A DNA stretch of 27,991 bases from Promethearchaeota archaeon (GCA_048938445.1 JBHLME010000056.1:1-27991), one strand, 5' to 3'. Positions 10,946 to 27,759 are shown, counted from the first letter of the stretch. Notes: generated from the letters alone by a model not told the origin. Numbers and translations: made by a program.

Positions 10946-10976
10946 TTATTTAATAATATTAAGCTTGAATTTTCAA
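10946..10976 (-). promoter_or_regulatory. Shared promoter/operator element, copy 1 (upstream of the SDR gene)
   Basis: ttatttaataatattaagcttgaattttcaa is 29/31 identical to 13565-13595 and contains the inverted repeat TTGAA-N2-TTCAA. Confidence 0.7.
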
Positions 10977-11032
10977 CATATCATTATTAATCTAAAATTT
11001 TAAAACAATTGAAAAAATGAAAAAAAAAGAAA

Positions 11033-13453
11033 TTACTCAGTTTCTTTTAAAACTTCATTGAGGATTTCTACTGTAGTTTCAATAATCATTTTTGAAGTCG
11101 CTTTTTTTATCATTTTAGCCATCATTTTAAAGGATCCAGATATTTCAAAATCTATTTTGATAAAAATACCTATACCAGAATCTATTTCTTCAAAACTTAT
11201 CGTATAGAACACGCTACCTGGTGCAGGAACCACTTCAAATTTTGTAGAAATTTCAGTTCTTGAACCAACTTCATTGTTTGAAAATTCCCTTCCTTGTGCT
11301 ATGGTTTTATGTTGGGCAATTGCATCAAAAAAATTGTTTGTTATTTTTCCTAAATCTGCTGGTTTTTCTTTTAATTCAAAAATTTTCTCCTTTTCCTCAG
11401 ATGTGTCTTTATCCTTAGATTTACCCTTATCACCAGAAGTAACCACAACCCTTACACGACCAAGATTGGGGATTCGTGCATAAGGGGTATTAGGATTTCC
11501 TTGTCTATGTGAAGATGCTCGAGCTGCTGGAAAATAAGTACCAGCTTTAGAAAAAGCATATTTTGTAGTTACTTCCACATGGGTACTTTTGGTGTCTTTA
11601 AGTTTTGAAGTGATTGGGAAGTCACCTTCACCTTCAAAATCCCATTCTACCCCGACTACTGAACCTGCATCTGGTGGTGTTTCGATAACTGCATTGAACT
11701 TAACTTTTTCCCCTACTTTAACATCTGCTCGCTCGCCACCGTTTACAGTTAAATTAATCACTGGTTGAACTCCTTTTCGCTCCGCTGCGGTTGGAGGTAC
11801 TTCTACTTGACCATCAACTATCTTGTAAGTAGTACTTAAAGGGGGTTTTATGCCTTTTTCAACCCATGCGCTTACGTCACGTAGCGCTTGTTGCAATACA
11901 GGTCCATAATTAATAATGCGTGTATGAATTGATGGAGGAGGATCTAAAGGTGTAGCTATTGGAGGTGTATGCATGGCATGGTCGATATACCAGAGTCGGT
12001 AATTATCATCAAATTGTTCTCCTAAATGTTCTTTTATTTTCGAACGGTACCAGTCCGCCTGCCAAGGATATGCAATTTCATCCATCAAACACTCAATAAC
12101 GATCATTTTACCATTAATTTTACCACTAGGGATCGAACCAGTTCCTCCTTTAGTATAAAGCGGACCCATCAATATGGAACGTTGTGGATACAATGGGTTG
12201 CCATCAGCATCCCGGTATTGATCATAGACATAATGATCGGGATCTGGAATCTGGTGTCGATGATAAGTTTGAGAGGCAAGATAAACCGAGTTGTCGATCT
12301 CCACTTTGTCACCTACTTTGACAGCAGCCAGACTTTGGAAGTGGGATTCGCCGAATCCTACCATGACAAAATTATCGAACGCTCCAGCCACGTAGAATAT
12401 ATGTCCCTCAGCATCACCACTTTTCAGGATTATTGAGGCTCCTTGTATGTCACCCTCTGGCAAATCTTCCATTATAAGCGCTGCTGGGACTTTTGTATTA
12501 CCAGTACTCCCTGCTGACAGGGACACATTAATACCCATTTCTTTCAGATCTTCGGGCATTATTAATTTGCTGATAGTGGTCTCGTGATGGATTCGGGCAC
12601 GTCGGAGCGACTCGGGCGGATTTGCACCAAGGTAACCCGGTTCCTTCCAAAAATCCTCGAAATAAGTCGGGTCCTTTTCGATCGTTAAATCTATGAGGGA
12701 GGAAAAGACTCCGGTGTAGCCAAAAGCAATTCTCCTGTAATTAAACCAAGCTCGTGGTGGAAATCCAAACTTAGTTATTTCGATCAGTGCTTCTCTTTCC
12801 TCATCATTCAAGTTTGCATACATATCACCGCTACCCCCCGGTTCTATCGCGTCAATGATTGAATCTATCTTATCTCTTAGTATTCGCATTGTATGAGCCT
12901 GAATTGTAAAATTATTTATCATAGCCATTGGTGTTGCATGAATAAATGGCACCACACCGTCCCAGACACCATTTGTTTCCTCTATACAAGCTATGGTCTT
13001 AAATCCTCCACCACTACCTCCCCAAGCATAACCAAAGGGGCGATGGGGACCATACATTTCAGCGGCTAAAACGCGCGAATATTGTGCTACGGCTGCACTA
13101 GCTCGATATCCAGTGATAGAGGGATCTTCGCCAGGAAACATATCTAATCTTCCCAAGTTTGATTCCACAAAATAAGCACCACTTTCAAAGGCAAAACCTA
13201 AAGAGTAGCTGGGATTAGGATACTCTGGTTTTTGTGCAGCAGTTTCTTTTCCTGATATTGCCATGATATACTGGAAAAACCGACCTTCATATTTTTTTTT
13301 TGGTGGAAAGTATATCGAAAACCGAGCATCAGTGCCTTTAAAACCGCCATGGACATATCGATGACGCACGGGTTCGTCTCGCCACTCATCAATATCAATA
13401 TATGGCTGGTTAAAAATTGGATCTTCTGATCCATCAAACTCAATTTTTTGCAT
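11033..13453 (-). CDS. Large alpha/beta-hydrolase-like protein (tannase/feruloyl esterase-like) with PKD domain and an extra C-terminal domain
   Basis: Nucleophile elbow WGGSGGG, candidate Asp (MDEIA) and His (HAMH), and a PKD-like VEWDFEGEG...YAFSKAGTY. A charged linker leads to an ~120-aa tail. No signal peptide is evident. Confidence 0.7.
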   Translation of the reverse strand: MQKIEFDGSEDPIFNQPYIDIDEWRDEPVRHRYVHGGFKGTDARFSIYFPPKKKYEGRFFQYIMAISGKETAAQKPEYPNPSYSLGFAFESGAYFVESNLGRLDMFPGEDPSITGYRASAAVAQYSRVLAAEMYGPHRPFGYAWGGSGGGFKTIACIEETNGVWDGVVPFIHATPMAMINNFTIQAHTMRILRDKIDSIIDAIEPGGSGDMYANLNDEEREALIEITKFGFPPRAWFNYRRIAFGYTGVFSSLIDLTIEKDPTYFEDFWKEPGYLGANPPESLRRARIHHETTISKLIMPEDLKEMGINVSLSAGSTGNTKVPAALIMEDLPEGDIQGASIILKSGDAEGHIFYVAGAFDNFVMVGFGESHFQSLAAVKVGDKVEIDNSVYLASQTYHRHQIPDPDHYVYDQYRDADGNPLYPQRSILMGPLYTKGGTGSIPSGKINGKMIVIECLMDEIAYPWQADWYRSKIKEHLGEQFDDNYRLWYIDHAMHTPPIATPLDPPPSIHTRIINYGPVLQQALRDVSAWVEKGIKPPLSTTYKIVDGQVEVPPTAAERKGVQPVINLTVNGGERADVKVGEKVKFNAVIETPPDAGSVVGVEWDFEGEGDFPITSKLKDTKSTHVEVTTKYAFSKAGTYFPAARASSHRQGNPNTPYARIPNLGRVRVVVTSGDKGKSKDKDTSEEKEKIFELKEKPADLGKITNNFFDAIAQHKTIAQGREFSNNEVGSRTEISTKFEVVPAPGSVFYTISFEEIDSGIGIFIKIDFEISGSFKMMAKMIKKATSKMIIETTVEILNEVLKETE

Positions 13454-13564: not shown

Positions 13565-13596
13565 TTATTTAATAAATTTAAGCTTGAATTTTCAAG
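13565..13596. promoter_or_regulatory. Shared promoter/operator element, copy 2 (divergent hydrolase/HTH_10 intergenic region)
   Basis: ttatttaataaatttaagcttgaattttcaag includes the perfect inverted repeat CTTGAA-TT-TTCAAG at 13583-13596. Confidence 0.7.
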
Positions 13597-13630: not shown

Positions 13631-14278
13631 ATGAAGAAATTAAAAAAGATCGTTTTAAAAGTACCTTTAGATACAAGATCTAAGCCATTTTTTGATCTAA
13701 TGGAAAAATATGAATTACTACAAGTACACCGTCTTGATGATGATCAAATCTCTTCAACTCAGAAGGTAAAATTCAAGGATAATAAAATGCATCCAAAAAT
13801 GATGGAAGGTGAACCTTTTGGAATGTCATATATAGAAGTTATAGAACATGATAGGGCAAAAAATGAATTTATTTTCTTTTCTAAGATTAAATTGCCTAAG
13901 AAAACGAAAAAATTACTTGATAAACTAGAACTGATTATCGATCCACCTATTATTTTAGATAAAGATCAACTTTTAGTAAATGTTATAACAGATAGTGAAA
14001 ATATTGATGAATTGGTTAGTTCCCTAAATTTATATTATGATAGAGAATTGGAGATTCTAAGTATATCTCAAATTCATCCTAACTATGAAAATCTTTTTTT
14101 AGAATTAACGGACCGTCAGAAAGAAATTGTGTATTATGCTATTCAACATGGATATTTTGAAATACCTCGTAGAATCAATTCAAAGAAAATCGCTACTCAT
14201 TTTAAAATTTCTCGGAGTGCATTATATGAACACTTGCGAAAAATAGAAAGAACAATTTATCACTCAATATTCCATTAA
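13631..14278 (+). CDS. HTH_10 (bacterio-opsin activator-type) archaeal transcriptional regulator
   Basis: C-terminal LTDRQKEIV..AIQHGYFEIPRRIN...IA..F.ISRSALYEHLRKIE. Confidence 0.9.
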   Translation: MKKLKKIVLKVPLDTRSKPFFDLMEKYELLQVHRLDDDQISSTQKVKFKDNKMHPKMMEGEPFGMSYIEVIEHDRAKNEFIFFSKIKLPKKTKKLLDKLELIIDPPIILDKDQLLVNVITDSENIDELVSSLNLYYDRELEILSISQIHPNYENLFLELTDRQKEIVYYAIQHGYFEIPRRINSKKIATHFKISRSALYEHLRKIERTIYHSIFH

Positions 14279-14545
14279 AAGATTATGTTGTAGCCATATT
14301 TATTTAAAAAATTTAGTATTTATTCTTCAATCATACTTTAATCCTTTCTTCTCCATTTTTTTTATGTAAAATTTATATTTTTTTTTAACAAGAATATGAG
14401 AAAGAAGTATCTCATTCAGATTAAAAAAATTGGTTTAAACAAGTATTTGTTTTCAAAAATAAAAAAATCTTGTCTAATATTTTTTGAATAAGTAAATAGT
14501 TGAAATATAAATATATTGAGTTATAGAATTGTGATAGAAATATTT

Positions 14546-14564
14546 AAATGTCCGACGGTCATTT
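14546..14564 (+). promoter_or_regulatory. Putative TetR operator overlapping the GRE promoter
   Basis: Pseudo-palindrome AAATGTCCGACGGTCATTT overlaps the 3' end of a BRE/TATA-like GAAATATTTAAAT and ends 8 nt before the ATG. Confidence 0.7.
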
Positions 14565-14572
14565 ATTAACAT

Positions 14573-17026
14573 ATGGTAGTTCAAAATTTAAAAATGGCTC
14601 CTCTCCAAGGATTTCCTTCTGAGAGAGTTCGAAAGATTAGAGATAAGATGTTATCTAGCCCGTTTGAATATGATATTGAGCGAGCAAGATGTTACACAAG
14701 AATATGGAAGCAGATGTTAGACTCACCTCCCTGCATACGGAAAGCTAAAGCATTAGAGGAATTTATACGTTGCCTTCCTATAAGGATTGATGATGATGAA
14801 CTACTTGTAGGAGTAAAATCTAGTAAAATAAGAGCTGATCCTTTTGAAATAGAACTTGGGTCGCATGTTAACATTTTTGGTATTCTCTTAAACGATAAGA
14901 TCAAAAGGAGCGCTAAAAAGGCATTCACTAGCATGTTTAACAATCTTGAGCGTTATGCTCCTCTTACAGAACAAGAAATCAATGAGTTGAATAATGATAT
15001 TATTCCTTTCTGGCAGGAGAGAACTGTATGTAGCCGAAAAGGAGAAGTTTTAAGAGATGCAGGATTATACACTGATTTTACTGGACCTATGGCTGATATA
15101 TTTAGTAGATTTTTATTGCAGAATCCGGATTTTTATACATTACTGGCCGATGTTCAAGGACATGTCATTCCAGGTTATAAACGGGTTTTAAAAATAGGAT
15201 TTAAGGGAATAGAAAAAATGGCTACAGAAGGTCTTTCCAAACTCAAGGAAACAGATGATAATTATGAACAACGTAAGGATTTTTATGAAGCTGTTTTGGT
15301 AACTTCTCGAGCCGTCTGTGATTATTCCAATCGGTATGCTGATTTAGCCCTGGAAATGGCTGAAAATGCTAAAGAGGAAAGAAAAGCAGAGCTCTTAGAA
15401 ATTGCCGAACGCGCAAGGAGAGTACCAGCTCTCCCGCCTAGATCTTTTATGGAAGCAATTCAATCTGTATGGATGACGAATGTTGTTATGGAAATGAGTT
15501 ATGGAGAGATGAATGTCTTTTCTCAAGGGCGAGTAGACCAATATCTTTATCCTTATTATGCCGCCGATTTAGCAGAAGGAAAGATTACTTATGAAGAAGC
15601 TTTGGGAGCAATTGAAGAATATTTAGTGAAACTTTCTTCAGTTGTTATAGCAGGACAGAACAACATAACTATTGGGGGGTTAGATAAGGATGGAAATGAT
15701 GCTACTAATGATGTATCATACTTGTTCCTTGAGGCTATTGCAAATGTAAAAAGTTTATTAAATACACTGTCAATACGGATATCTTCTAAAACACCTCACG
15801 AGTTTTTGAAAAGAGTTATTGAAACATATCGACATACTGCAGGAATGGCCATTCATTATGATGACATATTAATCCCACAACTTCAAAAAGATGGTTATTC
15901 ATTAGAAGATGCCCGAGACTATTCAATTGTTGGATGCGTGGAACCTACAGGTACGGGTAATGATTTTTCCTATACGGGAGGTAATGGTATTTTTATGGGA
16001 GTGGTTTTTAACATGGCATTAAATGAAGGACGTGTTCTTATGACAGGAGATCGACAAGTTGGTGCAAAAACTCCCGATCCTAGTACTTTTAAATCTTTTG
16101 AGGATGTAAAGCAAGCATTTGTAGATCAACTTACTTACGCAATAGATAGAACTGTGAAAATGGCGGAGTTAAAAGACAAAGTATTTGCAGAAGAATTTCC
16201 CTCTCCATTAATATCCTCTACGATAGAAGGATGCTTAGAGAGTGGTATGGATATCACCAGAAATGGGGCACGTTATAATAATAGTTGTATGAATGGAGAA
16301 GCACTAGGAACCGTAGCTAACTCGCTTGCAGCAATACAGTGGGCGGTATACGAAAAAAATTTACTCACAATGGGAGAATTGGTTAATCATCTTCGTAATA
16401 ACTTCAAGGGCGCAGAAGCGCTTAGGGAACAATTATTGAATAAGGCTCCTAAATATGGCAATGGTGATGAAGAAGCAGATGAACTTGCAAGATGGCTCAT
16501 GCAAATTTTTAGTGAAATTCCAAGAAAATATCATGTAAGGGGTGGAAATGGTATATATCGCTCTAGCCTTGTATCTGCTGCAGGATCACATGTCATGGAG
16601 GGTAAAATGTTAGGTGCTACTCCAGATGGAAGATTACATGGAGAACCCGTATCAAACGGACTTTCTCCTGTAAACGGCACAGAACATAATGGTCTTACTA
16701 TGGTGCTCCGATCAGTAGCTCTAGCTTCACGTGATGCTCTCCTTACAGATGGAGTGGCTCTAAATGTAAGAGTTAATCCAAGCTCAATAGAGGATGATGA
16801 GGGAATAGATAAGCTAGCGTCTATAGTAGAGGCTTATTTTGATTTAGGAGGAAGAGAGCTTCAGATTAATCCAATAAGTTCAGAAATACTAAGAGATGCA
16901 CAAGCTCATCCAGAAAAATATCCTGACCTTTCAGTTAAGGTATCGGGTTATTCTGCTCGGTTTATAGATCTTAGCAAAAACCTTCAGGATGATATCATTG
17001 CACGAACTGTTTTCAATTACATCTAA
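14573..17026 (+). CDS. Glycyl radical enzyme (PFL family, eliminase/dehydratase-like, substrate unknown)
   Basis: Motifs I.DDELLVG, GRVDQYLYPYY, single-Cys loop IVGCVEP, APKYGN, GATPDGR, and glycyl loop DLSVKVSGYSARF. It lacks the CC pair of true PFL. Confidence 0.93.
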   Translation: MVVQNLKMAPLQGFPSERVRKIRDKMLSSPFEYDIERARCYTRIWKQMLDSPPCIRKAKALEEFIRCLPIRIDDDELLVGVKSSKIRADPFEIELGSHVNIFGILLNDKIKRSAKKAFTSMFNNLERYAPLTEQEINELNNDIIPFWQERTVCSRKGEVLRDAGLYTDFTGPMADIFSRFLLQNPDFYTLLADVQGHVIPGYKRVLKIGFKGIEKMATEGLSKLKETDDNYEQRKDFYEAVLVTSRAVCDYSNRYADLALEMAENAKEERKAELLEIAERARRVPALPPRSFMEAIQSVWMTNVVMEMSYGEMNVFSQGRVDQYLYPYYAADLAEGKITYEEALGAIEEYLVKLSSVVIAGQNNITIGGLDKDGNDATNDVSYLFLEAIANVKSLLNTLSIRISSKTPHEFLKRVIETYRHTAGMAIHYDDILIPQLQKDGYSLEDARDYSIVGCVEPTGTGNDFSYTGGNGIFMGVVFNMALNEGRVLMTGDRQVGAKTPDPSTFKSFEDVKQAFVDQLTYAIDRTVKMAELKDKVFAEEFPSPLISSTIEGCLESGMDITRNGARYNNSCMNGEALGTVANSLAAIQWAVYEKNLLTMGELVNHLRNNFKGAEALREQLLNKAPKYGNGDEEADELARWLMQIFSEIPRKYHVRGGNGIYRSSLVSAAGSHVMEGKMLGATPDGRLHGEPVSNGLSPVNGTEHNGLTMVLRSVALASRDALLTDGVALNVRVNPSSIEDDEGIDKLASIVEAYFDLGGRELQINPISSEILRDAQAHPEKYPDLSVKVSGYSARFIDLSKNLQDDIIARTVFNYI

Positions 17027-17121
17027 ACTTTAATTTAAATTCTAAATTTTTCATATTTTTTTTCTTTTTGATATTAGAGTTTTAATATATTTAAGATATC
17101 TTTGAATTAATGACCTTCAAA

Positions 17122-17793
17122 TCAAATAATATACGCTTTCTCCAGTCGATTTCTGAATTCTTTTAAAAAAAATTTGCGAAATTCTTCACTAGTCAATAAA
17201 TATTTATCATTATTAGAGGATTTCGTGATTTTATAAGTTAAATTTAGGTCTGCTTCGAATTTAGCCGCCCCAAGACAGGTTGCGTACATGTAATAATATA
17301 ACGCAATTGGATTTTTTTCCTTGTTCTTTCCTTCTTCAACCGCTTTAAGCACAATATTAATACCTTTTTTTATGACATCAAGTGGTCGATACTTTTCTTC
17401 GTATGGGCCAATTTTATTTGATGATGGCGCTCGAATGAAAAACATTATTTCAAATCTTTTTTTATCTTCGGCCGCAAATTCAAGGAAATATTGCGCCCAT
17501 TTAACTCCTAACTCCACATTATTTCCATCGTGATTTTTTAGAATCTCAGCAAATCCCTTTTCATACTCAGAAAAATAACGTGTTCTAATTGCGTACCACA
17601 ATTCTCTCTTAGATATGATATAATTGTACAAGTTGGATTTTGACATGTTTAATTTACTTGCTAATTCCCTCAAGCTAAATCCGTGAGAACCATATTCTAC
17701 AAAAAGATTTCTCCCGACTTCTAATATTTCATCAAATTGTTTTCTCTTTTTTTCGGGAGCTCTTGCTCTAGTTTTTCTTTTTCTTTCAACCAT
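17122..17793 (-). CDS. TetR/AcrR family transcriptional regulator
   Basis: N-terminal HTH ILEVGRNLF.EYG..GFSLRELASKLNMSKSNLYNY..SKREL. Confidence 0.92.
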   Translation of the reverse strand: MVERKRKTRARAPEKKRKQFDEILEVGRNLFVEYGSHGFSLRELASKLNMSKSNLYNYIISKRELWYAIRTRYFSEYEKGFAEILKNHDGNNVELGVKWAQYFLEFAAEDKKRFEIMFFIRAPSSNKIGPYEEKYRPLDVIKKGINIVLKAVEEGKNKEKNPIALYYYMYATCLGAAKFEADLNLTYKITKSSNNDKYLLTSEEFRKFFLKEFRNRLEKAYII

Positions 17794-17934
17794 TATGTAT
17801 TAGAATTATACAATAAAATAAAAATCATTTTATAATGATAGTATTGAATATGCATTTTCTGTTACATCTCTCTTTCAAAAACATCATGTTTTTAAAGTGT
17901 TTCATATTTTAAACTAACATTATTATTATTGATT

Positions 17935-17953
17935 AAATTAACGACGGTCATAT
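17935..17953 (-). promoter_or_regulatory. Putative TetR autoregulatory operator
   Basis: AAATTAACGACGGTCATAT. On the minus strand it directly follows a TATA-like TTAATATATA. It lies within a 28-bp stretch that is 27/28 identical to 22983-23010. Confidence 0.7.
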
Positions 17954-18178
17954 ATATATTAAGGTTGCCTAAAAAATCATATTTTTAGCGAAAAACGATT
18001 TATGATGCAAAAAAGACATTTTACTTTTTTTAAAATAAAGTAAAATGAATTTGAATTAATATTGATTGAAAAGAAATAGAAAATAATGAATATATATTAA
18101 ATTCACTATAAGCACATAAAAATAAATTTGGGAAAGTAAATATGGCAATAAACATAATCAAGAATAGGAAGATTGTAA

Positions 18179-19222
18179 ATGGTTCTAAATCAAACTAAGC
18201 GAGAAATTATCAAGAATAGGTTTAGATTTCTATTATTTGAAGTTTTTGTATGTTTTTTCTTGATTTTTTGCGCATCAATTCTAGAATGGTTGATCTTGCC
18301 TATCTCGTTAAATCCTGAGATATTTGGGATGTTATTCTACACAATTCGATTAATATTAGTGTTTTTAGCAATTCCTACAACAATTTATTTAATGGACAAA
18401 TATATTAGCCCTTATAAAGGAAAATTGAGGAAAACATCAAAGATATCCGTGTTTAAAGGACACATAATGCTATATAAAATCGCTAAAAGCAACTACAAAT
18501 ACCAATTCTTGTATGGACTTATATTATTGTTTTTGGTTTTTATTCCCTTGAATTTTTTGTTATATCTTTTAGTTCCAGAAATTTTACCATATCATTTAAA
18601 TTCAATGAAATTGAATGTATTGAATTCTTACCTTTTTATAAATGATTTCGCTCTTTTTTTCATCCTATTAATTGTAATACAAACTTCCATTGTGTTTGCT
18701 GAAGAATCAATATATAGAGGTTTTATAAATAAAAGAGGGAGTGAAAATTTTAATAAAATTTCGGCCGTTTTTATATCTTCTTATTCTTATGGATTTTTAA
18801 GTTTAAATTTTTATAGATTTAATCCTTGGTTTCCAGTCATATGGTTTTTTACAATGTTCTTTATTGGTTTGATTCTGTCTCTTTTAATTTTAAGAAGAAA
18901 ATGGCTTTTTCCTTCTATTTTTTCTCATTCAATTAGCAATATTATAATGGTTAGCATTATTTGGTGTTTTTCAAAAGGATGGGGATATTATGAAATATTA
19001 CTCCTCATTTACGCTCCATTAATAAGTATCAGTATACTTGTATTTATACTTCAATATAAACGAATAAAAGAGAGCATATCTATTGGTTTAAATATGTTAA
19101 AAAAATATGCTAAAAATGACGATAAAGAAGATGAAATTAATAGCGATAAATATTTTCGAATATTTATTGATTTTATCATTGGATTTATTTTATTTCTAAT
19201 TAGTTTATTAATTCTGGTATAA
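18179..19222 (+). CDS. CPBP (CAAX protease / Abi) family intramembrane glutamic endopeptidase-like protein
   Basis: Multi-TM protein with AEESIYRG (EExxxR) and HSISN (HxxxN). The middle FxxxH motif is not evident. Confidence 0.82.
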   Translation: MVLNQTKREIIKNRFRFLLFEVFVCFFLIFCASILEWLILPISLNPEIFGMLFYTIRLILVFLAIPTTIYLMDKYISPYKGKLRKTSKISVFKGHIMLYKIAKSNYKYQFLYGLILLFLVFIPLNFLLYLLVPEILPYHLNSMKLNVLNSYLFINDFALFFILLIVIQTSIVFAEESIYRGFINKRGSENFNKISAVFISSYSYGFLSLNFYRFNPWFPVIWFFTMFFIGLILSLLILRRKWLFPSIFSHSISNIIMVSIIWCFSKGWGYYEILLLIYAPLISISILVFILQYKRIKESISIGLNMLKKYAKNDDKEDEINSDKYFRIFIDFIIGFILFLISLLILV

Positions 19223-19260
19223 AATTTTCAATAAATAAAATTCTAACATTATGATGATAT

Positions 19261-20319
19261 TTGATGTTTCGAAATATAAAAACACAATTTAAATTTAAAA
19301 CATATAAATCTGATGCTGCCCCATTTTTCTTCTTTATTGATATTTATCCTCTTAAATTAAACAATTTTGATAAACCTCGTTCCTCATTTTTAGCTCAACA
19401 AATTCAAAACAAACCGATAATACCTTTACCTATGAGAGTTGATAAAGTTTTTAATGGCGAACATTCATTAATAATTCACCCTGATGATCCAATAACTTTC
19501 CCAATCAACGATTCTAATCTTGCGATTATTGATCCATTCCCATTCTTACAACTTGGACTTGAAAAATTAATTTATTTTACCGAAATAAGATCACAAGAAA
19601 CATTCTTTCTTTCTTTAAAACAAAAAGCAGTCGAACAATGGTGGAATGCTACTAAGAATTTTTATGGTAATATGTCTCAACTTGAAGAAGATTTTACAGC
19701 TTTTTTAAAAGCATATTTACATACCATGTTAAACGCATATATTAATGAAGAAGATCTTGTTGGGGCGGCCATCGACTACTGCACCATTATAAATGATATT
19801 TGTAAGGAAAGGATGTTGAGAAATCTAATAACAGTAGAAATAGATACCCAACAACTACAACATAAATTATTCCAAGAAAAAACAAGAAAATATAGAGAAA
19901 AATTAAAAACATTCAATAAAACGGAGTTTCATCCAGAACTCATAGATATTGAAGTTTTTAATCTTTCAGAAACTGATTTTAAATGTCTCGGAACTATAAA
20001 AGATGAAATTAGGAAAGACTATGATAACTTCGATGTCAAAATATTAAAATATATTCCACTCTTGTTATATGACGATTTACAGGAATGCATGCTACAAAAT
20101 CTTAAATTACTCGAAACAAATGAATATAAATTACAAAATCCTTCCATTCTTTTAGAATCAAAAATAATAAAATTAGAAAGACAAGGAGATTTAAGTGATT
20201 TTGAATTAATTAATAGATTCAATTGGTTGAATAATCTAAGAAAAATAGATATTAATTCATTATTTAATTCTTTGACTGAAGCTTTAAATCAATTAAATAA
20301 TAATAAAATAGTTAAATGA
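19261..20319 (+). CDS. Hypothetical soluble protein
   Basis: 352-aa uninterrupted ORF, 38 nt downstream of the CPBP gene and co-oriented with it. No family was recognised. The start is TTG 19261 or ATG 19264. Confidence 0.75.
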   Translation: MMFRNIKTQFKFKTYKSDAAPFFFFIDIYPLKLNNFDKPRSSFLAQQIQNKPIIPLPMRVDKVFNGEHSLIIHPDDPITFPINDSNLAIIDPFPFLQLGLEKLIYFTEIRSQETFFLSLKQKAVEQWWNATKNFYGNMSQLEEDFTAFLKAYLHTMLNAYINEEDLVGAAIDYCTIINDICKERMLRNLITVEIDTQQLQHKLFQEKTRKYREKLKTFNKTEFHPELIDIEVFNLSETDFKCLGTIKDEIRKDYDNFDVKILKYIPLLLYDDLQECMLQNLKLLETNEYKLQNPSILLESKIIKLERQGDLSDFELINRFNWLNNLRKIDINSLFNSLTEALNQLNNNKIVK

Positions 20320-20544
20320 GTTGAAAATTTTAATGAAAAGAACCTAACTATAATAATATTTATATAACTGATTGAATGTTATGCTTTTTCACTAATATAA
20401 TTGATTTCTTTATCCTATAATAAATCTAAATTAAATATCTCTAACTGTTGTAAAAAACAATCCAAATTTGTCAACATTTTAAGTATCAATGAGATTTTTT
20501 CTAAATGTCTAACTTGAGTTATATTAATATTTGGATATTGGTTC

Positions 20545-20564
20545 AAAAAAATAAAAAAAAAAAA
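20545..20564 (-). terminator. Oligo-T terminator of the SBP gene
   Basis: An A tract on the plus strand (T tract on minus) lies directly after the stop codon. Confidence 0.55.
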
Positions 20565-20567
20565 TAT

Positions 20568-22907
20568 TTATATACTTCTTTTCCTTCTTCGATTCGTATA
20601 TACGACTCCGACAAAACTTAACAATGACACGGCTATTACTATTATTACAATAATTTCCCATGGAAAAGCTGGTGGAACTTGAGGTCCCATATATTTTACG
20701 AAATTAAATGTAAACGTAAAAAATGAAGAGGACCATTTTACCTCCCATTCGTTTCTAACTGCATAACCAGTCTTTCCGTTTGATATATAAATCACGGGAT
20801 ATTGAAAATCTTGAATCCATTCAGTTAACTCTTTGTATAAATTTATTTCTTCTGTCTCATTTGCGAACCAAATATTAAATATTAAATCATCACACGTTTC
20901 ATTGTAATTAAATCCCATATTAGCGGAACCCGTATAAGGCCAAGTTGTTAAAGGTGTTGGAATATAATGAGGATATGGGACAACGGGATATCCAGAATAT
21001 GGGTAGTCCGAAATTACAGGATAACCTGATGAATTGATAGGTGATCTTTCAACAACTCCCGGACTTTGCAAATATGCTTGAATGTATCCAAGATCGTTAA
21101 ATCGAGCGTGAAATGGTGAAATTGCAAATCCATCATTTGAAAAAATGGGATAAGTAGCAGCGGGGTCTGTTAATGGCTTAAATAATGCTCCATATGTATT
21201 AGGTTCATCTTCCACGGCATCTATTTTACATCCAATCCTTGTAAGAGCTTCTTCTAAAGCGTCTTTAGCATCCTCGTGAGCTTGATCCCAATGATATTCC
21301 ATAGTATAAATTGGAGTAACACTTGCTGCAACTCCTTCCCAATCATCATCTGTGTCATATAAGCTATGAGCATTGCATATAGGTTCCCAGAATGTATCAT
21401 TGAGAAGTGCTTCTCTTGCTTTAGTAACATCAAAATAAGCAAGAGGTGTGGTCGGGTCATAATATTCATTCGATTTTCCTAAAAGACCTCCAGAACGTAC
21501 TACTCGACCTGCCTTAGTTACGTCAATATATGTGTTATAATCAAAAGCATAGGAGAGTGCTTTTCTAAATGCGCGATTTATACCATTGGCTTCTATGCTT
21601 TTAGCAGTACCAATAAAAGAAGTTTCGTTTCCATAACCTCTTGGAATAATATAGTAAGTTAAATCATAATTAATGTCAGACCAATATTTTAAATATGTTT
21701 CATCAATGCAATTTAAAACAATTGTTTCTCCATATGATTCGATACCCATATCAACGTAATTCGCACCAACAGCAGTCGTAATAGTACTATATTCTATTGG
21801 TTCCCATTCACGATCCGTAGCGTAATCGATGTCTCCTGAAATTAAAGCATTGGTTCGTGTTTGATATCCTGACTGACCATGTGGAAAAGCTTGTATAGCC
21901 ACTTCTTGAAGCATGTGCCATCCTTCTGCTTGCTGAGCTGATGCATTCCACCAATTATCATTTCTATGCATTTTTCCTAAACCCGTGACATCATCATGGC
22001 TTTCGAAAATATAAGGGCCTGTACCTATTAAATGTCCTGGAAAGACAGAGGGATTACCTTGCGGAAAGGAGGGATTATTTCCATACCCTAATATTGGAAC
22101 CTCGAAATAATCTTTGTATGCTTGCATTGAAATAAATTCAAAATTTGCAAGATAATTTGGACCTGAACCCCAATCATTGAAGTAAACTCTAACTGTACCT
22201 CCCGATTGTTTATCATCAAGTATTGTTACATTTTGAAATCGAGGGAATCTAGCATAAAGAGCCCCCTGACTTCCATTATAATATTTATCCATAGACTGAG
22301 GATAATTAGCATAGACACCAGGGGTTAACTTTGATACATTCCAGCTGTTTGTTGCATAGTCATCCCATTCATCTATTTTCATCCAGTAAATGGGTCTAGT
22401 CACAGTAATACTACTTTCAGGATAATCTGGAAGAGCATTGTTTATATCTCCAAGAATGACAAAGGTTCTATCAATATTCCATTTACATACGGTAGCATTC
22501 CAATCTGAACCATCGTGAAATTTAACATTTTCTCGAAGTGTTATGTCCATGTAATCAATCCCCTCATATGCCATGAAGCCTTTAGCAGTATGTTCTATTG
22601 GTCTATTGTGAATGGTCCAATTTTTTGCGATTACAGGTATTAAATTATCAAGACTTCCATTTTCTGCATTATATGGCCATAAGTATAGAGGTTCAAGAGC
22701 ATTATATAAATAATAATCACCATAACTCGCATCATAAGCTTCCATGCTCCAATGTTCAATGGTTGATTGTGGACCAGCAGTTCCTACTGTAAAAGTTGGG
22801 ATTTCCAGAAGTTCTTGAGCTGCTATGGGCATTGTTAATTGAATCGTGGGTAAAAAGAATGAGGCTAATAAAAGAGTAATGATTAACATGTTTGTATTTT
22901 TTTTCAT
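20568..22907 (-). CDS. dppA: ABC transporter substrate-binding protein, family 5 (peptide/nickel), archaeal type with C-terminal TM anchor
   Basis: Signal peptide, then motifs LRENVKFHDGS.WNA..CKWNIDR, IGTGPY and FRKALSYAFD. The C-terminal hydrophobic helix is followed by RRRKRS. SD AAGGAG. Confidence 0.9.
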   Translation of the reverse strand: MKKNTNMLIITLLLASFFLPTIQLTMPIAAQELLEIPTFTVGTAGPQSTIEHWSMEAYDASYGDYYLYNALEPLYLWPYNAENGSLDNLIPVIAKNWTIHNRPIEHTAKGFMAYEGIDYMDITLRENVKFHDGSDWNATVCKWNIDRTFVILGDINNALPDYPESSITVTRPIYWMKIDEWDDYATNSWNVSKLTPGVYANYPQSMDKYYNGSQGALYARFPRFQNVTILDDKQSGGTVRVYFNDWGSGPNYLANFEFISMQAYKDYFEVPILGYGNNPSFPQGNPSVFPGHLIGTGPYIFESHDDVTGLGKMHRNDNWWNASAQQAEGWHMLQEVAIQAFPHGQSGYQTRTNALISGDIDYATDREWEPIEYSTITTAVGANYVDMGIESYGETIVLNCIDETYLKYWSDINYDLTYYIIPRGYGNETSFIGTAKSIEANGINRAFRKALSYAFDYNTYIDVTKAGRVVRSGGLLGKSNEYYDPTTPLAYFDVTKAREALLNDTFWEPICNAHSLYDTDDDWEGVAASVTPIYTMEYHWDQAHEDAKDALEEALTRIGCKIDAVEDEPNTYGALFKPLTDPAATYPIFSNDGFAISPFHARFNDLGYIQAYLQSPGVVERSPINSSGYPVISDYPYSGYPVVPYPHYIPTPLTTWPYTGSANMGFNYNETCDDLIFNIWFANETEEINLYKELTEWIQDFQYPVIYISNGKTGYAVRNEWEVKWSSSFFTFTFNFVKYMGPQVPPAFPWEIIVIIVIAVSLLSFVGVVYTNRRRKRSI

Positions 22908-22956
22908 TTTAATCTCCTTTTTTTTAAAACAACACGTTTTTAAATTATTGTATATA

Positions 22957-22979
22957 TTAAATTACCATTGGTAATTTAA
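22957..22979. promoter_or_regulatory. Perfect 11-1-11 inverted repeat, putative operator
   Basis: TTAAATTACCA-T-TGGTAATTTAA. Its central 19 bp fit the consensus AAATKACCRWYGGTMATTT. Confidence 0.75.
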
Positions 22980-22985
22980 ATAATT

Positions 22986-23004
22986 AAATTAACGATGGTC
23001 ATAT
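22986..23004 (-). promoter_or_regulatory. Putative TetR operator adjacent to the SBP TATA box
   Basis: AAATTAACGATGGTCATAT. On the minus strand it follows a BRE/TATA-like GAAACTTTTATATA. Confidence 0.7.
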
Positions 23005-23087
23005 ATATAAAAGTTTCTAAAAATTATTACATTTTTGGAAATCATGATTCATAAAGTAAAAGAGATTTTACATTTTGTCGATAATGA

Positions 23088-23627
23088 TTGAAAATAATTA
23101 TGATAATGATCAAAAACAAAAAGAAGATACTAATTGATGATAACAGTTCTCATCACAAATCTATAAAAATAGATTGGGGAAGGCAAGGTGGAGTATTTTT
23201 AGCATACATCATTGTTTTGCTAGGTTATTATGGAATCGTTGCTAATATAGTAATGTACCAAGGTAATAATGAATGGTTGTCCTTTACAGAAATGGATAGA
23301 ACCATTCTTTTTTGGACATTTAACGTGTATGGGCAAACATTCTTTTTACCAATATTATTGCTGTTCTTTACTTGCTTTTTTTTAACATACAAAGAAGATA
23401 TTCCTCATTATGGAATTAAAGCGTCAATATGGATTGCGCCATTTTTAATAACTGAAGCATTTATATTATATTTCATTATGTATGGTTTTAACATTGAACC
23501 ATTTATCTATCAATTTGGAGATGGAAGGGGTTATTTAAATATATTGATAATATTCACCACAACATTTATTGGTGCTATAAGTGGAATGAAAGCAAAACAA
23601 TTTGTTGAATTAAAGAGAAATATTTGA
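23088..23627 (+). CDS. Hypothetical 4-TM membrane protein heading the ABC permease operon
   Basis: Four hydrophobic segments, co-oriented with dppB. The start is uncertain. Confidence 0.75.
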   Translation: MKIIMIMIKNKKKILIDDNSSHHKSIKIDWGRQGGVFLAYIIVLLGYYGIVANIVMYQGNNEWLSFTEMDRTILFWTFNVYGQTFFLPILLLFFTCFFLTYKEDIPHYGIKASIWIAPFLITEAFILYFIMYGFNIEPFIYQFGDGRGYLNILIIFTTTFIGAISGMKAKQFVELKRNI

Positions 23628-23701
23628 GGAGGTATTAAAAAAATCAGAAATCTTTATAGTCAATTTCATAAATTATAATTATATTAAAAATAGGGGATAT
23701 A

Positions 23702-24772
23702 ATGGTTAAAAAACAAAAAAATATGATAAAATATATCATCAGACGAATATTGATGATGATTCCAATGTTATTAATTGTTCTAACTTTAACTTGGTTTTTA
23801 TCGCGTATGATGTCTATAGATCCAGTCACAAATAAAATCGCAGGGGCTATAACTGATCCTGAAGCTTTGGAGGCATATTTACAAAGTATAGGATATTATG
23901 ATCCATGGTTTGTTCAACTAGGATCTTATTTTTTAAAATTTTTTACGGGTGATTGGGGAGATTCCTATGTAGTCTTTGAAAATCAACCCATTATAAACAT
24001 AGTTTTTGAGATTTTCCCAAGAACTATTGAGTTGATGATTATTCCTATAATTCTAACTCCTATTATTGCTGTTAAACTTGGAGTATCTTCATCAGTACAA
24101 AAAGATAAAAAAAAAGATATGCTGATTAGGACAGTAGCAATTTTGGGAGCAGGATTTCCCGTTTTTTGGATTGGTTCTATGGCTCAAATATTTTTTGGTT
24201 ATTTTTTAAACCTATTTACAAGAGGTAGCCTTGATTTTCCCGTATTTTTCTCAAATTCAACTAGAATAAATAGTATTATTCCTGATAATGCTCCAACTAC
24301 TGGTTTTCGCCTTATTGATTGTATTATTTATAATGATCAGGTCTATTTATGGGATACTATATTGCACCTGATAATTCCAGCTTTATGTATAACTTTTGTT
24401 TCATTGGCTAATATAACAAGACAAACCCGATCTAGCATGTTGGATGTATTAAATCAAGATTATATAAGAACAGCTAGAGCAAAAGGAGTCATAGAAAAAG
24501 ATGTTATTAACAAACATGCTCTCCGTAATGCATTATTGCCTGTTAGTAATCTTATTATTCAAGGGACAGCTACTGCCTTACTTGGTTCTTTCTTTATCGA
24601 AATAACTTTTGTTTATAAAGGTTATGGATATTATATGGTAGCGGCGATTGTTTTGGGAGATTATTTACTTATAAATGGATTGTTAATAGTTGCAACAATA
24701 ATAATTCTTAGTGGAACCTTAGTTGCTGACGTGATGTATACTATTATTGATCCAAGAATAACATATAGATAA
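23702..24772 (+). CDS. dppB: Peptide/nickel ABC transporter permease (DppB/OppB type)
   Basis: Motifs KYIIRRIL, GDWGDSY, PRTIEL, EAA loop QDYIRTARAKG...HALRNAL, and terminal DPRI. Confidence 0.93.
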   Translation: MVKKQKNMIKYIIRRILMMIPMLLIVLTLTWFLSRMMSIDPVTNKIAGAITDPEALEAYLQSIGYYDPWFVQLGSYFLKFFTGDWGDSYVVFENQPIINIVFEIFPRTIELMIIPIILTPIIAVKLGVSSSVQKDKKKDMLIRTVAILGAGFPVFWIGSMAQIFFGYFLNLFTRGSLDFPVFFSNSTRINSIIPDNAPTTGFRLIDCIIYNDQVYLWDTILHLIIPALCITFVSLANITRQTRSSMLDVLNQDYIRTARAKGVIEKDVINKHALRNALLPVSNLIIQGTATALLGSFFIEITFVYKGYGYYMVAAIVLGDYLLINGLLIVATIIILSGTLVADVMYTIIDPRITYR

Positions 24773-24801
24773 AATATTATATAATTAAAGAGGATCTAAG
24801 A

Positions 24802-25800
24802 ATGATTGAACAAGATTATGAAATGAAAAATAGAAACTACAATCAAAAAAACTCACAAAAGAAAAAGCAAGTAATACGATTTATAAAATTTTATTTAATA
24901 CCTGGTTGGCGAGATCCTGACTTCACAGCTCAAGAGCGTGAAATAGATAAAATAAAATCAAAAAGAAAATTATTTCGACATCTTCTTAAACCATTAACAA
25001 TTCTAGGAATAGTTTTACTTCTATTTATACTTTTTATAACAATATATGCTCCTTGGTTGACACCTTTTCCATTACAAGAAATTATCCCCCCTTATTCGCC
25101 TACAGAGGGTATGCCATGGTCACCCCCTTCAATTGATCACCCTATGGGAACTGCGATAAAAGGATATGATGTATTAGCAAAAATAATTTGGGGCGCAAGG
25201 ACAACAATTTTAACAGCAATAATTCCTGTATCCATATCAATTGGAGGCGGCCTCATATTGGGAACAATTGCGGCATATTTTGGAAAATATGTAGACTATG
25301 TCATGATGCGCTTTGTAGATGTTATCTATGCATTTCCTACTTTAATTTTAGTCATCATCCTTGCTCCGATGTTGAATGATCAACTAATCACCATTCTAAT
25401 AGTATTTGGTATTCTCTTCATACCATTCAATATCAGATTTATGCGATCGATAGTTTTACAAGTTAAGCAGCTAGATTTTATTCACGCTGCTAAAGTTGGA
25501 GGTGCAAAAAAATTTAAAGTAATGTTTAAACACATCGTACCAAACGCACTCTCACCAATGTTAGTAGCTTTTTTTGGAGGTGCCGCTATAGCTATAATAG
25601 GTTTAGCAAGTTTAGCCTATTTAGGATTTTCACCTGATAATGTTGCAAGTTGGGGTGCTGATATATGGGATGCCCAATTAAAATATAGTAACTTATCTGC
25701 CTCTATTTGGCCTGGGGTTTTTATAGGAATTACTGCAATAGCATTCATATTAATTGGCGACGGGTTACGCGACGCATTAGATCCACGATTAAAGTTATAA
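24802..25800 (+). CDS. dppC: Peptide/nickel ABC transporter permease (DppC/OppC type)
   Basis: Motifs PPS.DHPMGT..KGYDV, DFIHAAKVGGA, HIVPN and GDGLRDALDPR. Confidence 0.93.
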   Translation: MIEQDYEMKNRNYNQKNSQKKKQVIRFIKFYLIPGWRDPDFTAQEREIDKIKSKRKLFRHLLKPLTILGIVLLLFILFITIYAPWLTPFPLQEIIPPYSPTEGMPWSPPSIDHPMGTAIKGYDVLAKIIWGARTTILTAIIPVSISIGGGLILGTIAAYFGKYVDYVMMRFVDVIYAFPTLILVIILAPMLNDQLITILIVFGILFIPFNIRFMRSIVLQVKQLDFIHAAKVGGAKKFKVMFKHIVPNALSPMLVAFFGGAAIAIIGLASLAYLGFSPDNVASWGADIWDAQLKYSNLSASIWPGVFIGITAIAFILIGDGLRDALDPRLKL

Positions 25801-25866
25801 AAGGAGGAAATTAAAATTTCAGAGCATTCATTATTATTTTATATTGGTTATCCATTCAATTTTGGA

Positions 25867-27759
25867 ATGGCTATAATAGATTCAATTGTTGCAGTGTTAG
25901 TTTTATATATTATTTCATCTATGATCAACAAACACATACCAGAAGATAAACAAATCCCTAAAAGAGAACATAAGAGATGCACGGCCATAGTTTCCCTCAT
26001 ACTTTTAGTTATTAGCATTGACATTAGGGTCATGCTAGAGTTTATATGGGGTTATGTTGAAATATTTGTGATTTTCACGAATGATTTTTTAATGTTAGGA
26101 ATTCTGAGTATAATTTTTTATTATTTATACAAGAAACGCATTATTAGATTTGGTCCTATTGTTGAGAAGAAGTTTTTTAACAGTCCTTTTCTAAAAATTT
26201 ATAATATATTTATTATTTTAATTTGGATAGGTGCAATATCATTCATTCCTATTCCACTCTTGGACATTCCGATAAATCATCCTGATGTTTTTGAATTAGG
26301 ATTTTATTGGGCAGCTTTAACAGTTGTAATTAATATTGTTTTTACGTTTTTGATTAATAATATTCGCTCAATTGAAAATAGAATTCCTAAACAGCCTCTC
26401 AAGTATGCTATGTTTTCAGGTGGGCTTATATCATTTGGAATCTGGGCGATACAACTTATAGTCTTTGAATTATATTTAAAACGAGTATTTGGAATTCCTC
26501 TCTGGGAACAGGATATTCGAATATTAATCGGTGTAGTTACTAGTATTTACATAATTATACTTATCGTGTCATTAAAAAAAAGATTTTTACCAAAAGCTAA
26601 AGAACAAAGTAAAACAAGAGTTCAAAAAGTATTAGTAGAAATGAAAGTTCAAGCTTCAAATGAGCTTGATTCGGTGATGGATAGGACAGGGGCAAAAGAA
26701 TTACTCAATGTAAAAGATCTCACGACTTATTTTTATACTGAAGAAGGCGTGGTTCATGCTGTGGAAAATGTTTCTTTTAAAGTTAATGAGGGAGAAGTAT
26801 TAGGCTTAGTAGGTGAAACAGGTTGTGGAAAATCTGTAACTGGTTTATCGATCCTTCGTTTAATCAGACCTCCAGGAAAAATCAGAAATGGAAATGTTTT
26901 TTTTAATGGAGTTGATCTCTTAGAAAAATCCGAAAAAGAAATGTTAGAATATCGTGGAAAAGACATAACAATGATATTTCAAGATCCGCTTAATTCTCTT
27001 AATCCAGTTTTTAAGATAGGTAAACAAATTTCTGAAGTATTTTTATTACATATGCTAGATGAATTGCTTGTTGAAGCTTCTAAAGATGACAATATGAGTA
27101 TTTATAGTTTAGCTCGAAAATGGAGTATCGATTTGTTGAAAGATTTAAATATCCCCCATCCCGAAGTAATAATTGATCGATACCCTCACGAATTAAGCGG
27201 TGGAATGCGGCAAAGAGTTCAAATTGCAATCGGATTAGCATGTAGACCTAAATTATTAGTTGCTGATGAACCAACTACAGCATTAGATGTCACGATTCAA
27301 AATCAAATCTTAAAACTAATGATAGAGCTTCACAAGAAATACAAAACAACCATATTATTTATTTCTCATGATTTTGGAATCATTACAAAAATGTGTAATT
27401 ATGTTGCTGTCATGTATAGTGGTTCAATAGTCGAATATGGAAAAATTCAAGCATTATTCACAAGACAATATCATCCTTACACGATGGGTTTAATTAAGTC
27501 TATTCCAGTTGTTGGAAAACAGAAAGATACTCTATCTATCATACCTGGAATGGTTCCTAATTTAATTTATCCCCCTTCAGGATGTAGATTTCATCCAAGA
27601 TGTCAATACTGTTTCGAACCTTGTGAATCATTAATGCCTAAAAATATTAAGATAGACGAAGAATATTTTGTTGCCTGCCACCTTTATGATCCAGAATATA
27701 AAGAATTAGCAGAAATTGCTTTAAAAAAAATAGAAGAAATTCAAAATAAAACAATATGA
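25867..27759 (+). CDS. dppD: Peptide ABC transporter ATPase (DppD/OppD type) with an N-terminal ~7-TM domain
   Basis: Walker A GETGCGKS, Q-loop IFQDP, signature LSGGMRQR, Walker B LLVADEPT, H-loop ISHD, and Cys-rich GCRFHPRC...VACH. The first ~240 aa are hydrophobic. The start may extend to ATT at 25816. Confidence 0.92.
   Translation: MAIIDSIVAVLVLYIISSMINKHIPEDKQIPKREHKRCTAIVSLILLVISIDIRVMLEFIWGYVEIFVIFTNDFLMLGILSIIFYYLYKKRIIRFGPIVEKKFFNSPFLKIYNIFIILIWIGAISFIPIPLLDIPINHPDVFELGFYWAALTVVINIVFTFLINNIRSIENRIPKQPLKYAMFSGGLISFGIWAIQLIVFELYLKRVFGIPLWEQDIRILIGVVTSIYIIILIVSLKKRFLPKAKEQSKTRVQKVLVEMKVQASNELDSVMDRTGAKELLNVKDLTTYFYTEEGVVHAVENVSFKVNEGEVLGLVGETGCGKSVTGLSILRLIRPPGKIRNGNVFFNGVDLLEKSEKEMLEYRGKDITMIFQDPLNSLNPVFKIGKQISEVFLLHMLDELLVEASKDDNMSIYSLARKWSIDLLKDLNIPHPEVIIDRYPHELSGGMRQRVQIAIGLACRPKLLVADEPTTALDVTIQNQILKLMIELHKKYKTTILFISHDFGIITKMCNYVAVMYSGSIVEYGKIQALFTRQYHPYTMGLIKSIPVVGKQKDTLSIIPGMVPNLIYPPSGCRFHPRCQYCFEPCESLMPKNIKIDEEYFVACHLYDPEYKELAEIALKKIEEIQNKTI

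Follow-up and report, generated by a model that had tools for sequence, protein, structure and literature searches.

Putative TetR operators link a glycyl radical enzyme, its neighbouring regulator and an ABC importer in a Promethearchaeota archaeon

Analysis of a 27,991-nt stretch of DNA from a Promethearchaeota archaeon (GCA_048938445.1, JBHLME010000056.1:1-27991; called the window below, over its whole length) led to a set of four 19-bp sites situated in the promoter regions of a glycyl radical enzyme (GRE), a TetR-family regulator and an ATP-binding cassette (ABC) importer (Table 1). These sites are probably operators of a local TetR-family repressor, for which the most likely candidate is the 223-aa protein encoded beside the GRE. 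The preliminary description of this DNA had proposed that one type of operator joins GRE, tetR and importer in a local regulon, and this central claim is supported by every computational test that was run: the rarity of the sites, their conservation at position -27 of the GRE promoter, the clustering of the genes and the distribution of TetR clades agree. Since the sites are rare and their arrangement is kept in related archaea, the system would be an ordinary repressor–operator switch of the TetR type in a little-studied lineage, with DNA binding, the sign of regulation and the inducer deduced from the sequence. A literature search found no described regulator–operator pair in Asgard archaea. 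The window is contig C170 of a 4,627,293-base metagenome-assembled genome of 256 contigs with 29.6% G+C (the own genome, G000; G, L and C numbers denote genomes, fetched loci and contigs, respectively).

A pattern search of the window recovered exactly the four sites originally listed, at 14546, 17935, 22959 and 22986, with 1, 2, 0 and 2 mismatches to the earlier consensus, respectively. It had also been noticed that their G+C-containing cores stand out from AT-rich intergenic DNA, and this was confirmed by the G+C content of the inner 11 bases (36–73%) compared with that of the three intergenic regions without the sites (17–19%). The operator site of the GRE promoter (O-GRE) begins 27 nt ahead of the GRE ATG, from which its end is separated by 8 nt, and its first four bases are the last four of the TATA-like element AGAAATATTTAAAT. 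For the site at 17935, the distance to the tetR ATG is 141 nt and that to the ATG of the divergent CAAX-type protease gene is 225 nt, and the two sites upstream of the substrate-binding protein (SBP) gene (22959 and 22986) are spaced by 27 bp from centre to centre.

The sites are rare both in the window and in the genome. In 100 dinucleotide-preserving shuffles of the window the mean number of matches was 0.32 and the largest 3, and none of the 100 reached the four observed. Genome-wide, the consensus has 49 matches with at most three mismatches and six with at most two, four of which are the window sites, indicating that the motif does not occur at background frequency; the remaining two are C111:869 and C68:45141, the latter being one of three similar matches 213 bp apart. 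A weight matrix built from five sites, all from relatives, and scanned over both strands with a cut-off of 12 bits gave 41 matches of at least 12 bits in the 4.63 Mb, headed by 14546 (30.1), 17935 (27.3) and 22986 (21.2), followed by C76:4922 (20.9); the 30 best of these 41 matches do not include the site at 22959, whose centre is ATT. Additionally, two of the four genomic occurrences of the core ACGAYGGTCAT are in the window. In its own genome the motif is confined to the GRE, tetR/CAAX and SBP/orf179 promoter regions, and the consensus and matrix scans gave no convincing further member of the regulon beyond the window. C111:869 was rejected as a member since it lies within an open reading frame (ORF), as was C76:4922, which overlaps the start codon of an ORF with, by eye, an aminotransferase-like N-terminus.

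The position of the site at the GRE promoter is conserved in relatives. The comparison covered 25 promoters from 20 genomes, all of orthologous GREs whose 5' end is intact (left out were the bacterial loci L014–L016 (32–33% identity), 5'-cut copies (the first GRE of L013, L110, L115) and L096, which is the same as L002). A site like that of the window, referred to as type A, is located exactly 27 nt before the GRE ATG, with the same 8-nt gap, in 6/25 promoters from five genomes (the window, L002 and L109, both of G005, L017, L064 of G016 and L097 of G003), and degenerate versions are found in 2/25, both from G026, at -26 and -37. Across four aligned type-A promoters, neither TTTAAAT nor the right half CGACGGTCATT changes by reading, and the left half and the flanks vary. 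Another 19-bp palindrome, type B (AAATTTACnnnGTAAATTT, AAATWTACnnnGTAWATTT), is located at -46 to -49 in 7/25 promoters (L001, L010, L011 twice, L013, L019 and L098). The ten promoters with neither type comprise four with CTTGAATTTTCAAG at about -51 instead (L003, L004, L005 and L008), five with a non-palindromic sequence at -27 (AAATGACCGAATTACAC in L007, L009 and L018, close variants in L006 and L012) and that of the second GRE of L001, where nothing recognisable was found. The first nine bases of AAATGACCGAATTACAC are the type-A half-site.

A TATA-like element lies about 26–35 nt before the ATG in all aligned GRE-orthologue promoters, a distance that suggests a very short or absent GRE leader. 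TATA-like heptamers counted genome-wide at -35 to -26 (101 and 100 per 5-nt bin, compared with mostly 57–100 upstream) lend weak support at best to leaderless transcripts because the ORF starts used were crude. The GRE gene is tandemly duplicated in several Asgard genomes (L001 2401-7432, L011 10001-15014 and L013), and in L011 each copy has its own type-B site.

Sites were also found at the other promoters of the system, which is clustered in several relatives. In G005, from the same genus, the synteny of importer, SBP, orf352, CAAX and tetR is kept, a related site ATATGAACGTCATTCATTT lies 60 nt before the SBP ATG, and there are two GREs, one of them on another contig, both with the site at -27. 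In G016, tetR and GRE are divergent around a single site and a second site lies upstream of the activase gene. As for type B, all four exact matches of G044 and G051 fall within the cluster, at the SBP/permease intergenic region and at the GRE, and of the two exact matches of G043 the first is at the GRE and the second at C66:11198 (L081:1501-1519), an exact palindrome in an AT-rich stretch beyond the GRE cluster; G045 has near-identical palindromes upstream of tetR (AAATCTACTATGTAGATTT) and of the GRE (AAATCTACTATGTAAATTT). A TetR gene accompanies the GRE, within one cluster or on one contig, in eight loci (G000, G016, G005:C64, G013:C2, G026:C106, G043, G044 and G045), and in several genomes TetR, GRE, activase and ABC importer form a single cluster. 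Five other genomes (G003, G005, G043, G044 and G051) have the importer operon directly before the GRE orthologue, an order that supports the earlier proposal of a joint system of uptake and radical catabolism.

The regulator itself has the features of its family. TetR_N (PF00440) was found at residues 23–65 (E 4.3e-08, 33.2 bits with a cut-off of 24), and the AlphaFold2 model (pLDDT 87.2, pTM 0.81) is all-helical with 11 helical elements. Foldseek returned 279 PDB matches at E <=0.001, of which those listed are TetR-family regulators, in agreement with the all-helical TetR fold of about 9–10 helices in two domains, the C-terminal one serving ligand binding and dimerisation; the top matches are FasR, AibR and FadR-type TetRs, including the Sulfolobus FadR (6en8), at 10–20% identity to solved members. 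Structural neighbours of the model that act as acyl-CoA sensors could serve as a lead to the ligand.

The variant of the operator tracks the TetR clade. Type A goes with TetR orthologues of 61–100% identity and type B with homologues of 39–44%, the latter in 5/5 type-B genomes. In a search of 41 relatives, a TetR of at least 61% identity was found in G000, G005, G016 and G026, all of which have a GRE of at least 66% identity and a type-A or type-A-like site. In the recognition helix, NLYNY is preceded by KS in the type-A class and, in the type-B class, by KN, QQ, PN or QN. Of five genomes without the site at the GRE promoter, three gave no TetR match at 1e-20 and two have homologues of 38–43%; G049 and G050, which have the non-palindromic -27 sequence, gave no TetR match at 1e-20.

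Table 1. Sites, promoter elements and genes of the window (coordinates counted from its first base; strand "." where no strand is assigned)
Feature	Position	Strand	Remarks
O-GRE operator site AAATGTCCGACGGTCATTT	14546-14564	+	8/9 symmetric pairs; predicted operator
Site AAATTAACGACGGTCATAT in the tetR/CAAX divergent intergenic region	17935-17953	.	6/9 symmetric pairs; predicted operator
Perfect palindrome AAATTACCATTGGTAATTT	22959-22977	.	9/9 symmetric pairs; 51 nt from SBP ATG
Site AAATTAACGATGGTCATAT	22986-23004	.	5/9 symmetric pairs; 83 nt before orf179 start; predicted operator
Decayed second site AAACTAACATTATTATTAT	17911-17929	.	Collinear with site 22959 in paralogous segment; 13/19 bases match (hand count)
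TFB-recognition element (BRE)/TATA-like element AGAAATATTTAAAT of GRE promoter	14536-14549	+	Putative assignment
Alternating AT tract (TATA-like) abutting site 17935	17950-17960	.	Sequence reading
GRE, 817 aa, PFL2/eliminase class	14573-17026	+	PFL-like and Gly_radical domains
TetR-family regulator, 223 aa	17122-17793	-	Pfam TetR_N, model, Foldseek
CPBP/CAAX-type membrane protease, 7 hydrophobic segments	18179-19222	+	Family search
352-aa ORF (orf352), without family	19261-20319	+	Family search
SBP, SBP_bac_5, Opp/Dpp family, 779 aa	20568-22907	-	Family search
orf179, small membrane ORF, 4 hydrophobic segments	23088-23627	+	Segment prediction
Two BPD_transp_1 permeases	23702-25800	+	Family search
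ABC ATPase with oligo_HPY	25867-27759	+	Family search
806-aa ORF (orf806), GRE partner	11033-13453	-	No Pfam or NCBIfam match
Second motif CTTGAATTTTCAAG	13583-13596	+	Exact; 48 nt before HTH_10 ATG; outside TetR site set
HTH_10-family regulator, directly upstream of GRE	13631-14278	+	Family search

Mechanistically, a TetR dimer would bind the imperfect palindrome, with AAATKACCG as the half-site, and the AT arms of the palindrome would overlap either the TATA box or the interval from TATA to start at the GRE and tetR/CAAX promoters and at those of the SBP and permease operons. The bound repressor would exclude TBP/TFB or RNA polymerase, and a small molecule linked to the pathway (the imported substrate, a GRE product or a CoA derivative) might release it, so that uptake and GRE-dependent catabolism would be induced jointly. 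In archaea, sites between the TATA box and the start and sites that overlap the TATA box are blocking positions of repressors. O-GRE starts in the TATA-like element and ends shortly before the ATG, and therefore a bound dimer would fill the TATA-to-start interval. The proposed pair is directly testable with one purified protein and three DNA fragments, and the ligand of this TetR would give a handle on the substrate of an Asgard-wide GRE family.

The same protein could also act on these sites as an activator or dual regulator and not as a simple repressor, in the manner of FasR, the best structural neighbour, which the excerpted text of PMC7382501 describes as a TetR-like activator. When read in the plus-strand sense, the sites 17935 and 22986 lie immediately upstream of an AT tract, from where they could activate the CAAX and permease promoters. 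However, this is quite unlikely given that at the GRE the 27 nt from the TATA-like element to the ATG are taken up by the site, that the right arm of type B overlaps the presumed TATA box, and that the Sulfolobus FadR is a repressor in the excerpted text of PMC6449355. Repression by the neighbouring TetR is the reading retained here.

A number of observations weigh against it, and the first of them concern the sites. Those at 17935 and 22986 are only weakly palindromic (Table 1). Both weak sites are situated in paralogous intergenic segments, with a local alignment score of 84 (shuffles 19.2 +/- 3.2, maximum 32) that is still 48 with the sites masked; BLASTN aligns 17855-18085 with 22901-23129 at 70% identity over 240 nt (E 2e-17), and collinear patches extend to about 18139 and 23186, giving a paralogy over about 240–270 bp. 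Owing to this shared ancestry, the two sites are not independent occurrences. BLASTN of the repeated segment against the own genome found nothing comparable elsewhere, so an origin from a mobile element or a miniature inverted-repeat transposable element (MITE) was rejected; a bidirectional promoter module was duplicated. Loose searches, moreover, were not enriched over the reversed-pattern control, either for type A at <=2 mismatches (forward 3/6/0/3/0, control 3/2/1/2/1) or for type B at <=1 mismatch (forward 8/7/5/4/8, control 7/4/10/3/2), and it is therefore the best matches and the places where they occur, rather than total counts, that carry the signal. No window gene was matched in the fetched locus of the three G005 matches at <=2 mismatches.

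These features, together with arms (AAAT/ATTT) that are themselves TATA-like, could be taken to mean that the sites are not operators at all and represent shared core-promoter sequence plus a duplicated promoter segment. Such an origin is very improbable: the G+C-rich core CGACGGTCAT (also given as core CGACGGTC) is kept at -27 in the six promoters of five genomes with diverged flanks, the same core is found upstream of the G016 activase at a different distance from the gene, the GRE promoter has no flanking similarity to the other two regions (alignment scores 20–25), and the relatives-only matrix ranks these promoters first genome-wide. Some isolated matches were discarded on inspection. Of two inspected in G002, one falls within a coding region and the second in an unannotated stretch whose locus lacks genes of the system. 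The loci of the G002 matches and of the G005 matches outside clusters contained none of these genes, save for a homologue of the activase some 0.8 kb away from the L057 match. G016:C151:631 appears, by reading, to sit in coding sequence.

The layout of the duplicated segment bears on the direction of control as well. In the minus-strand sense, the sites at tetR and SBP come after an alternating AT tract, the one at 17950-17960 being upstream of site 17935 in the sense of tetR and downstream in that of CAAX. In the plus-strand sense, these sites share with the GRE site both orientation and left-arm TATA overlap, and therefore 17935 and 22986 could just as well act on the CAAX and permease promoters of the plus strand, controlling CAAX-orf352, the orf179-permease-ATPase operon, or both directions. 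Both intergenic regions are bidirectional, so the strand of the abutted promoter is not readable from the bases. The former statement that the sites abut the 3' side of a TATA-like box of GRE, tetR and SBP consequently holds for the tracts, which are visible, and is ambiguous in strand at tetR and SBP.

The remaining points of this kind concern the regulator. In G003, which has a type-A site at the GRE, no TetR of at least 60% identity was found with this query, the best match being 37% identical with an in-frame TAG (the assembly is 83% complete, in 630 contigs); neither was one found in G042, also with a type-A site at the GRE, where the best match is 50% identical and resembles, in sequence and upstream region, a group of about 50% paralogues. 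In G016, tetR contains an in-frame TAA close to the 5' end, and the reading frame of the activase is broken (L064, G016:C321, about 560–620 and about 3954), reflecting either assembly error or a decaying cluster. Autoregulation, as earlier proposed, agrees with the arrangement of sites in G000, G016 and G045 and not with that in G005, the closest relative with the same synteny, where no site is found upstream of tetR. Furthermore, G000 has a TetR paralogue on C44 of 55% identity, whose recognition helix is near-identical, differing at few positions.

It follows that the sites might be real operators of another regulator, either this C44 paralogue or the HTH_10 protein, a reading that would account for the sites of G003 and G042 without a close TetR orthologue found. 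The HTH_10 gene lies directly upstream of the GRE in the window and adjoins GRE or orf806 in L004, L005 and L008. This alternative is nevertheless unlikely. HTH_10 was not detected in the fetched type-A/B loci of G016, G043, G044, G045 and G051 and it tracks the other motif, CTTGAATTTTCAAG; the C44 paralogue was rejected since its neighbours are unrelated genes (transglutaminase-like, DUF166 and FTR), and its relatives have a different upstream palindrome. The latter, G+C-containing and roughly CTTAACTGGGAAA...TTTCCCAGTAAG, was observed upstream of the about 50% paralogues (L025, L026 and L068) and may be their own operator or a terminator. The TetR encoded beside the GRE stays the preferred candidate. 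The TetR subfamily with the conserved helix NLYNYVxSKRELW is expanded in some relatives, with nine matches at E <=1e-15 in G013.

The motif CTTGAATTTTCAAG, linked to the adjacent HTH_10 gene, is a second conserved element that had been overlooked in the preliminary description, and it is probably the site of the HTH_10 regulator. It is also located, again as an exact match, 48 nt before the HTH_10 gene in L004, is often preceded by TTAAG, and recurs with one mismatch at 10964-10977 of the window, 125 nt upstream of an epimerase gene. In relatives it was found at L003:1587, L004:916 and 7763, L005:9949 and 7748, and L008:9950; among matches with at most one mismatch in 639 kb of fetched loci, 7/8 are in the GRE/HTH_10 neighbourhood, the exception being L037. 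Its presence before the GRE in some lineages would therefore mean that the GRE promoter bears sites of different regulators across lineages.

The closest known system is FadR of Sulfolobus acidocaldarius, which, in the text excerpted from PMC6449355, has only four genomic sites with dyad symmetry, represses a local cluster and is released by acyl-CoA. Both are archaeal TetR-family proteins with semi-palindromic operators and four sites in one local catabolic cluster that includes the regulator's own gene. On the other hand, the crenarchaeal FadR recognises a 16-bp motif, responds to acyl-CoA ligands, targets lipase and beta-oxidation genes and has experimentally shown binding (same excerpt), whereas the present system, from an Asgard archaeon, has a 19-bp motif and a GRE and an Opp-type importer as predicted targets. 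Bacterial TetR, QacR, AibR and FasR/FadR share with it the N-terminal helix-turn-helix, the helical ligand domain, a regulator gene beside the targets, palindromic operators (15–21 bp) and, in some lineages, an operator before the regulator's own gene. Unlike in these bacterial systems, the sites described here overlap archaeal TATA/BRE-type elements and not -10/-35 boxes.

With respect to the enzyme, the GRE carries PF02901 (2.7e-157) and PF01228 (3.7e-24), and the GCVE Cys loop (VGCVE) and KVSGYSA glycine loop read in its translation place it in the PFL2/eliminase class. A Glu two residues after the Cys is a mark of GRE eliminases. Its best PDB sequence matches by phmmer are the 1,2-eliminases CutC (9f3w, 1.4e-125), B12-independent glycerol dehydratase (1r8w, 2.2e-120) and HypD (6vxc, 2.8e-114). 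It differs from these in that no NCBIfam equivalog cut-off is reached (538 vs 678 bits for the PFL2-3 subfamily, 504 vs 1100 for HypD) and in that its relatives at 64–84% identity are all from metagenome-assembled genomes labelled Promethearchaeota or other Asgard groups, the nearest bacterial matches found being only 32–33% identical. Asgard GREs of this general kind were called alkyl-/benzylsuccinate synthases and read as alkane- or aromatic-activating in the excerpted text of PMC8163825. That label was rejected for the window GRE, whose phmmer matches to BSS (4pkc, 1.2e-71) and MasD (9o8u, 3.3e-68) compare with 1.4e-125 for CutC, a comparison by PDB sequences and not by those of PMC8163825 itself. 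The portion available of the microcompartment paper PMC12747264 has nothing on this GRE.

The window contains no radical-SAM activase. The syntenic activase of L011 has its best orthologue at G000:C47:19851-20750 (L093:5813-6811), 63% identical and on another contig than the GRE, where it directly follows a different GRE, 30% identical to that of the window; no match of at least 12 bits at the C47 activase promoter is among the 30 best matrix matches listed. Elsewhere, an activase is beside the GRE orthologue or in a cluster with it in G003, G005, G013, G016, G026, G044 and G045. Synteny with the GRE is seen for the partner orf806 in seven Asgard loci (L004, L006, L007, L009, L011, L012 and L018), and the clusters nearest to orf806 by Atlas contain Tannase and PKD domains in a minority of members, a lead to a possible tannase/feruloyl-esterase-like protein with a PKD domain. 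Its translation contains a GGSGGG stretch. L001 has an Abhydrolase_3 esterase in a place similar to that of orf806.

The Opp-type importer beside the GRE in five genomes argues for a polar imported substrate, and the conserved coupling to a binding-protein-dependent importer and esterases points away from alkane or aromatic activation; in the pathway, a polar compound would be imported, hydrolysed and subjected to radical elimination. A broader scheme can be put forward tentatively, as a possibility below even chance: a leaderless or short-leader GRE promoter may have been repeatedly rewired, with type A at -27, type B at about -47 and a diverged TetR, or the HTH_10-linked CTTGAATTTTCAAG at -51, in front of a pathway of Opp import, tannase-like or HSL-type esterase and radical 1,2-elimination of a polar ester-type compound, in which case the family would not consist of hydrocarbon-activating succinate synthases. 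If true, it would offer a set of pairs in which regulator and operator co-vary naturally, within the archaea most closely related to eukaryotes.

As regards the other genes of the window, tetR is convergent with the GRE, with a 95-nt spacer. The plus-strand genes at 23088-27759 are the membrane and ATPase parts of the importer, which is assigned to the Opp/Dpp type on the basis of SBP_bac_5, the two BPD_transp_1 permeases and the oligo_HPY C-terminal region of the ATPase. The SBP has an N-terminal signal-like hydrophobic segment and a C-terminal anchor, and the orf179-permease-ATPase order is the same in G005, G044 and G051.

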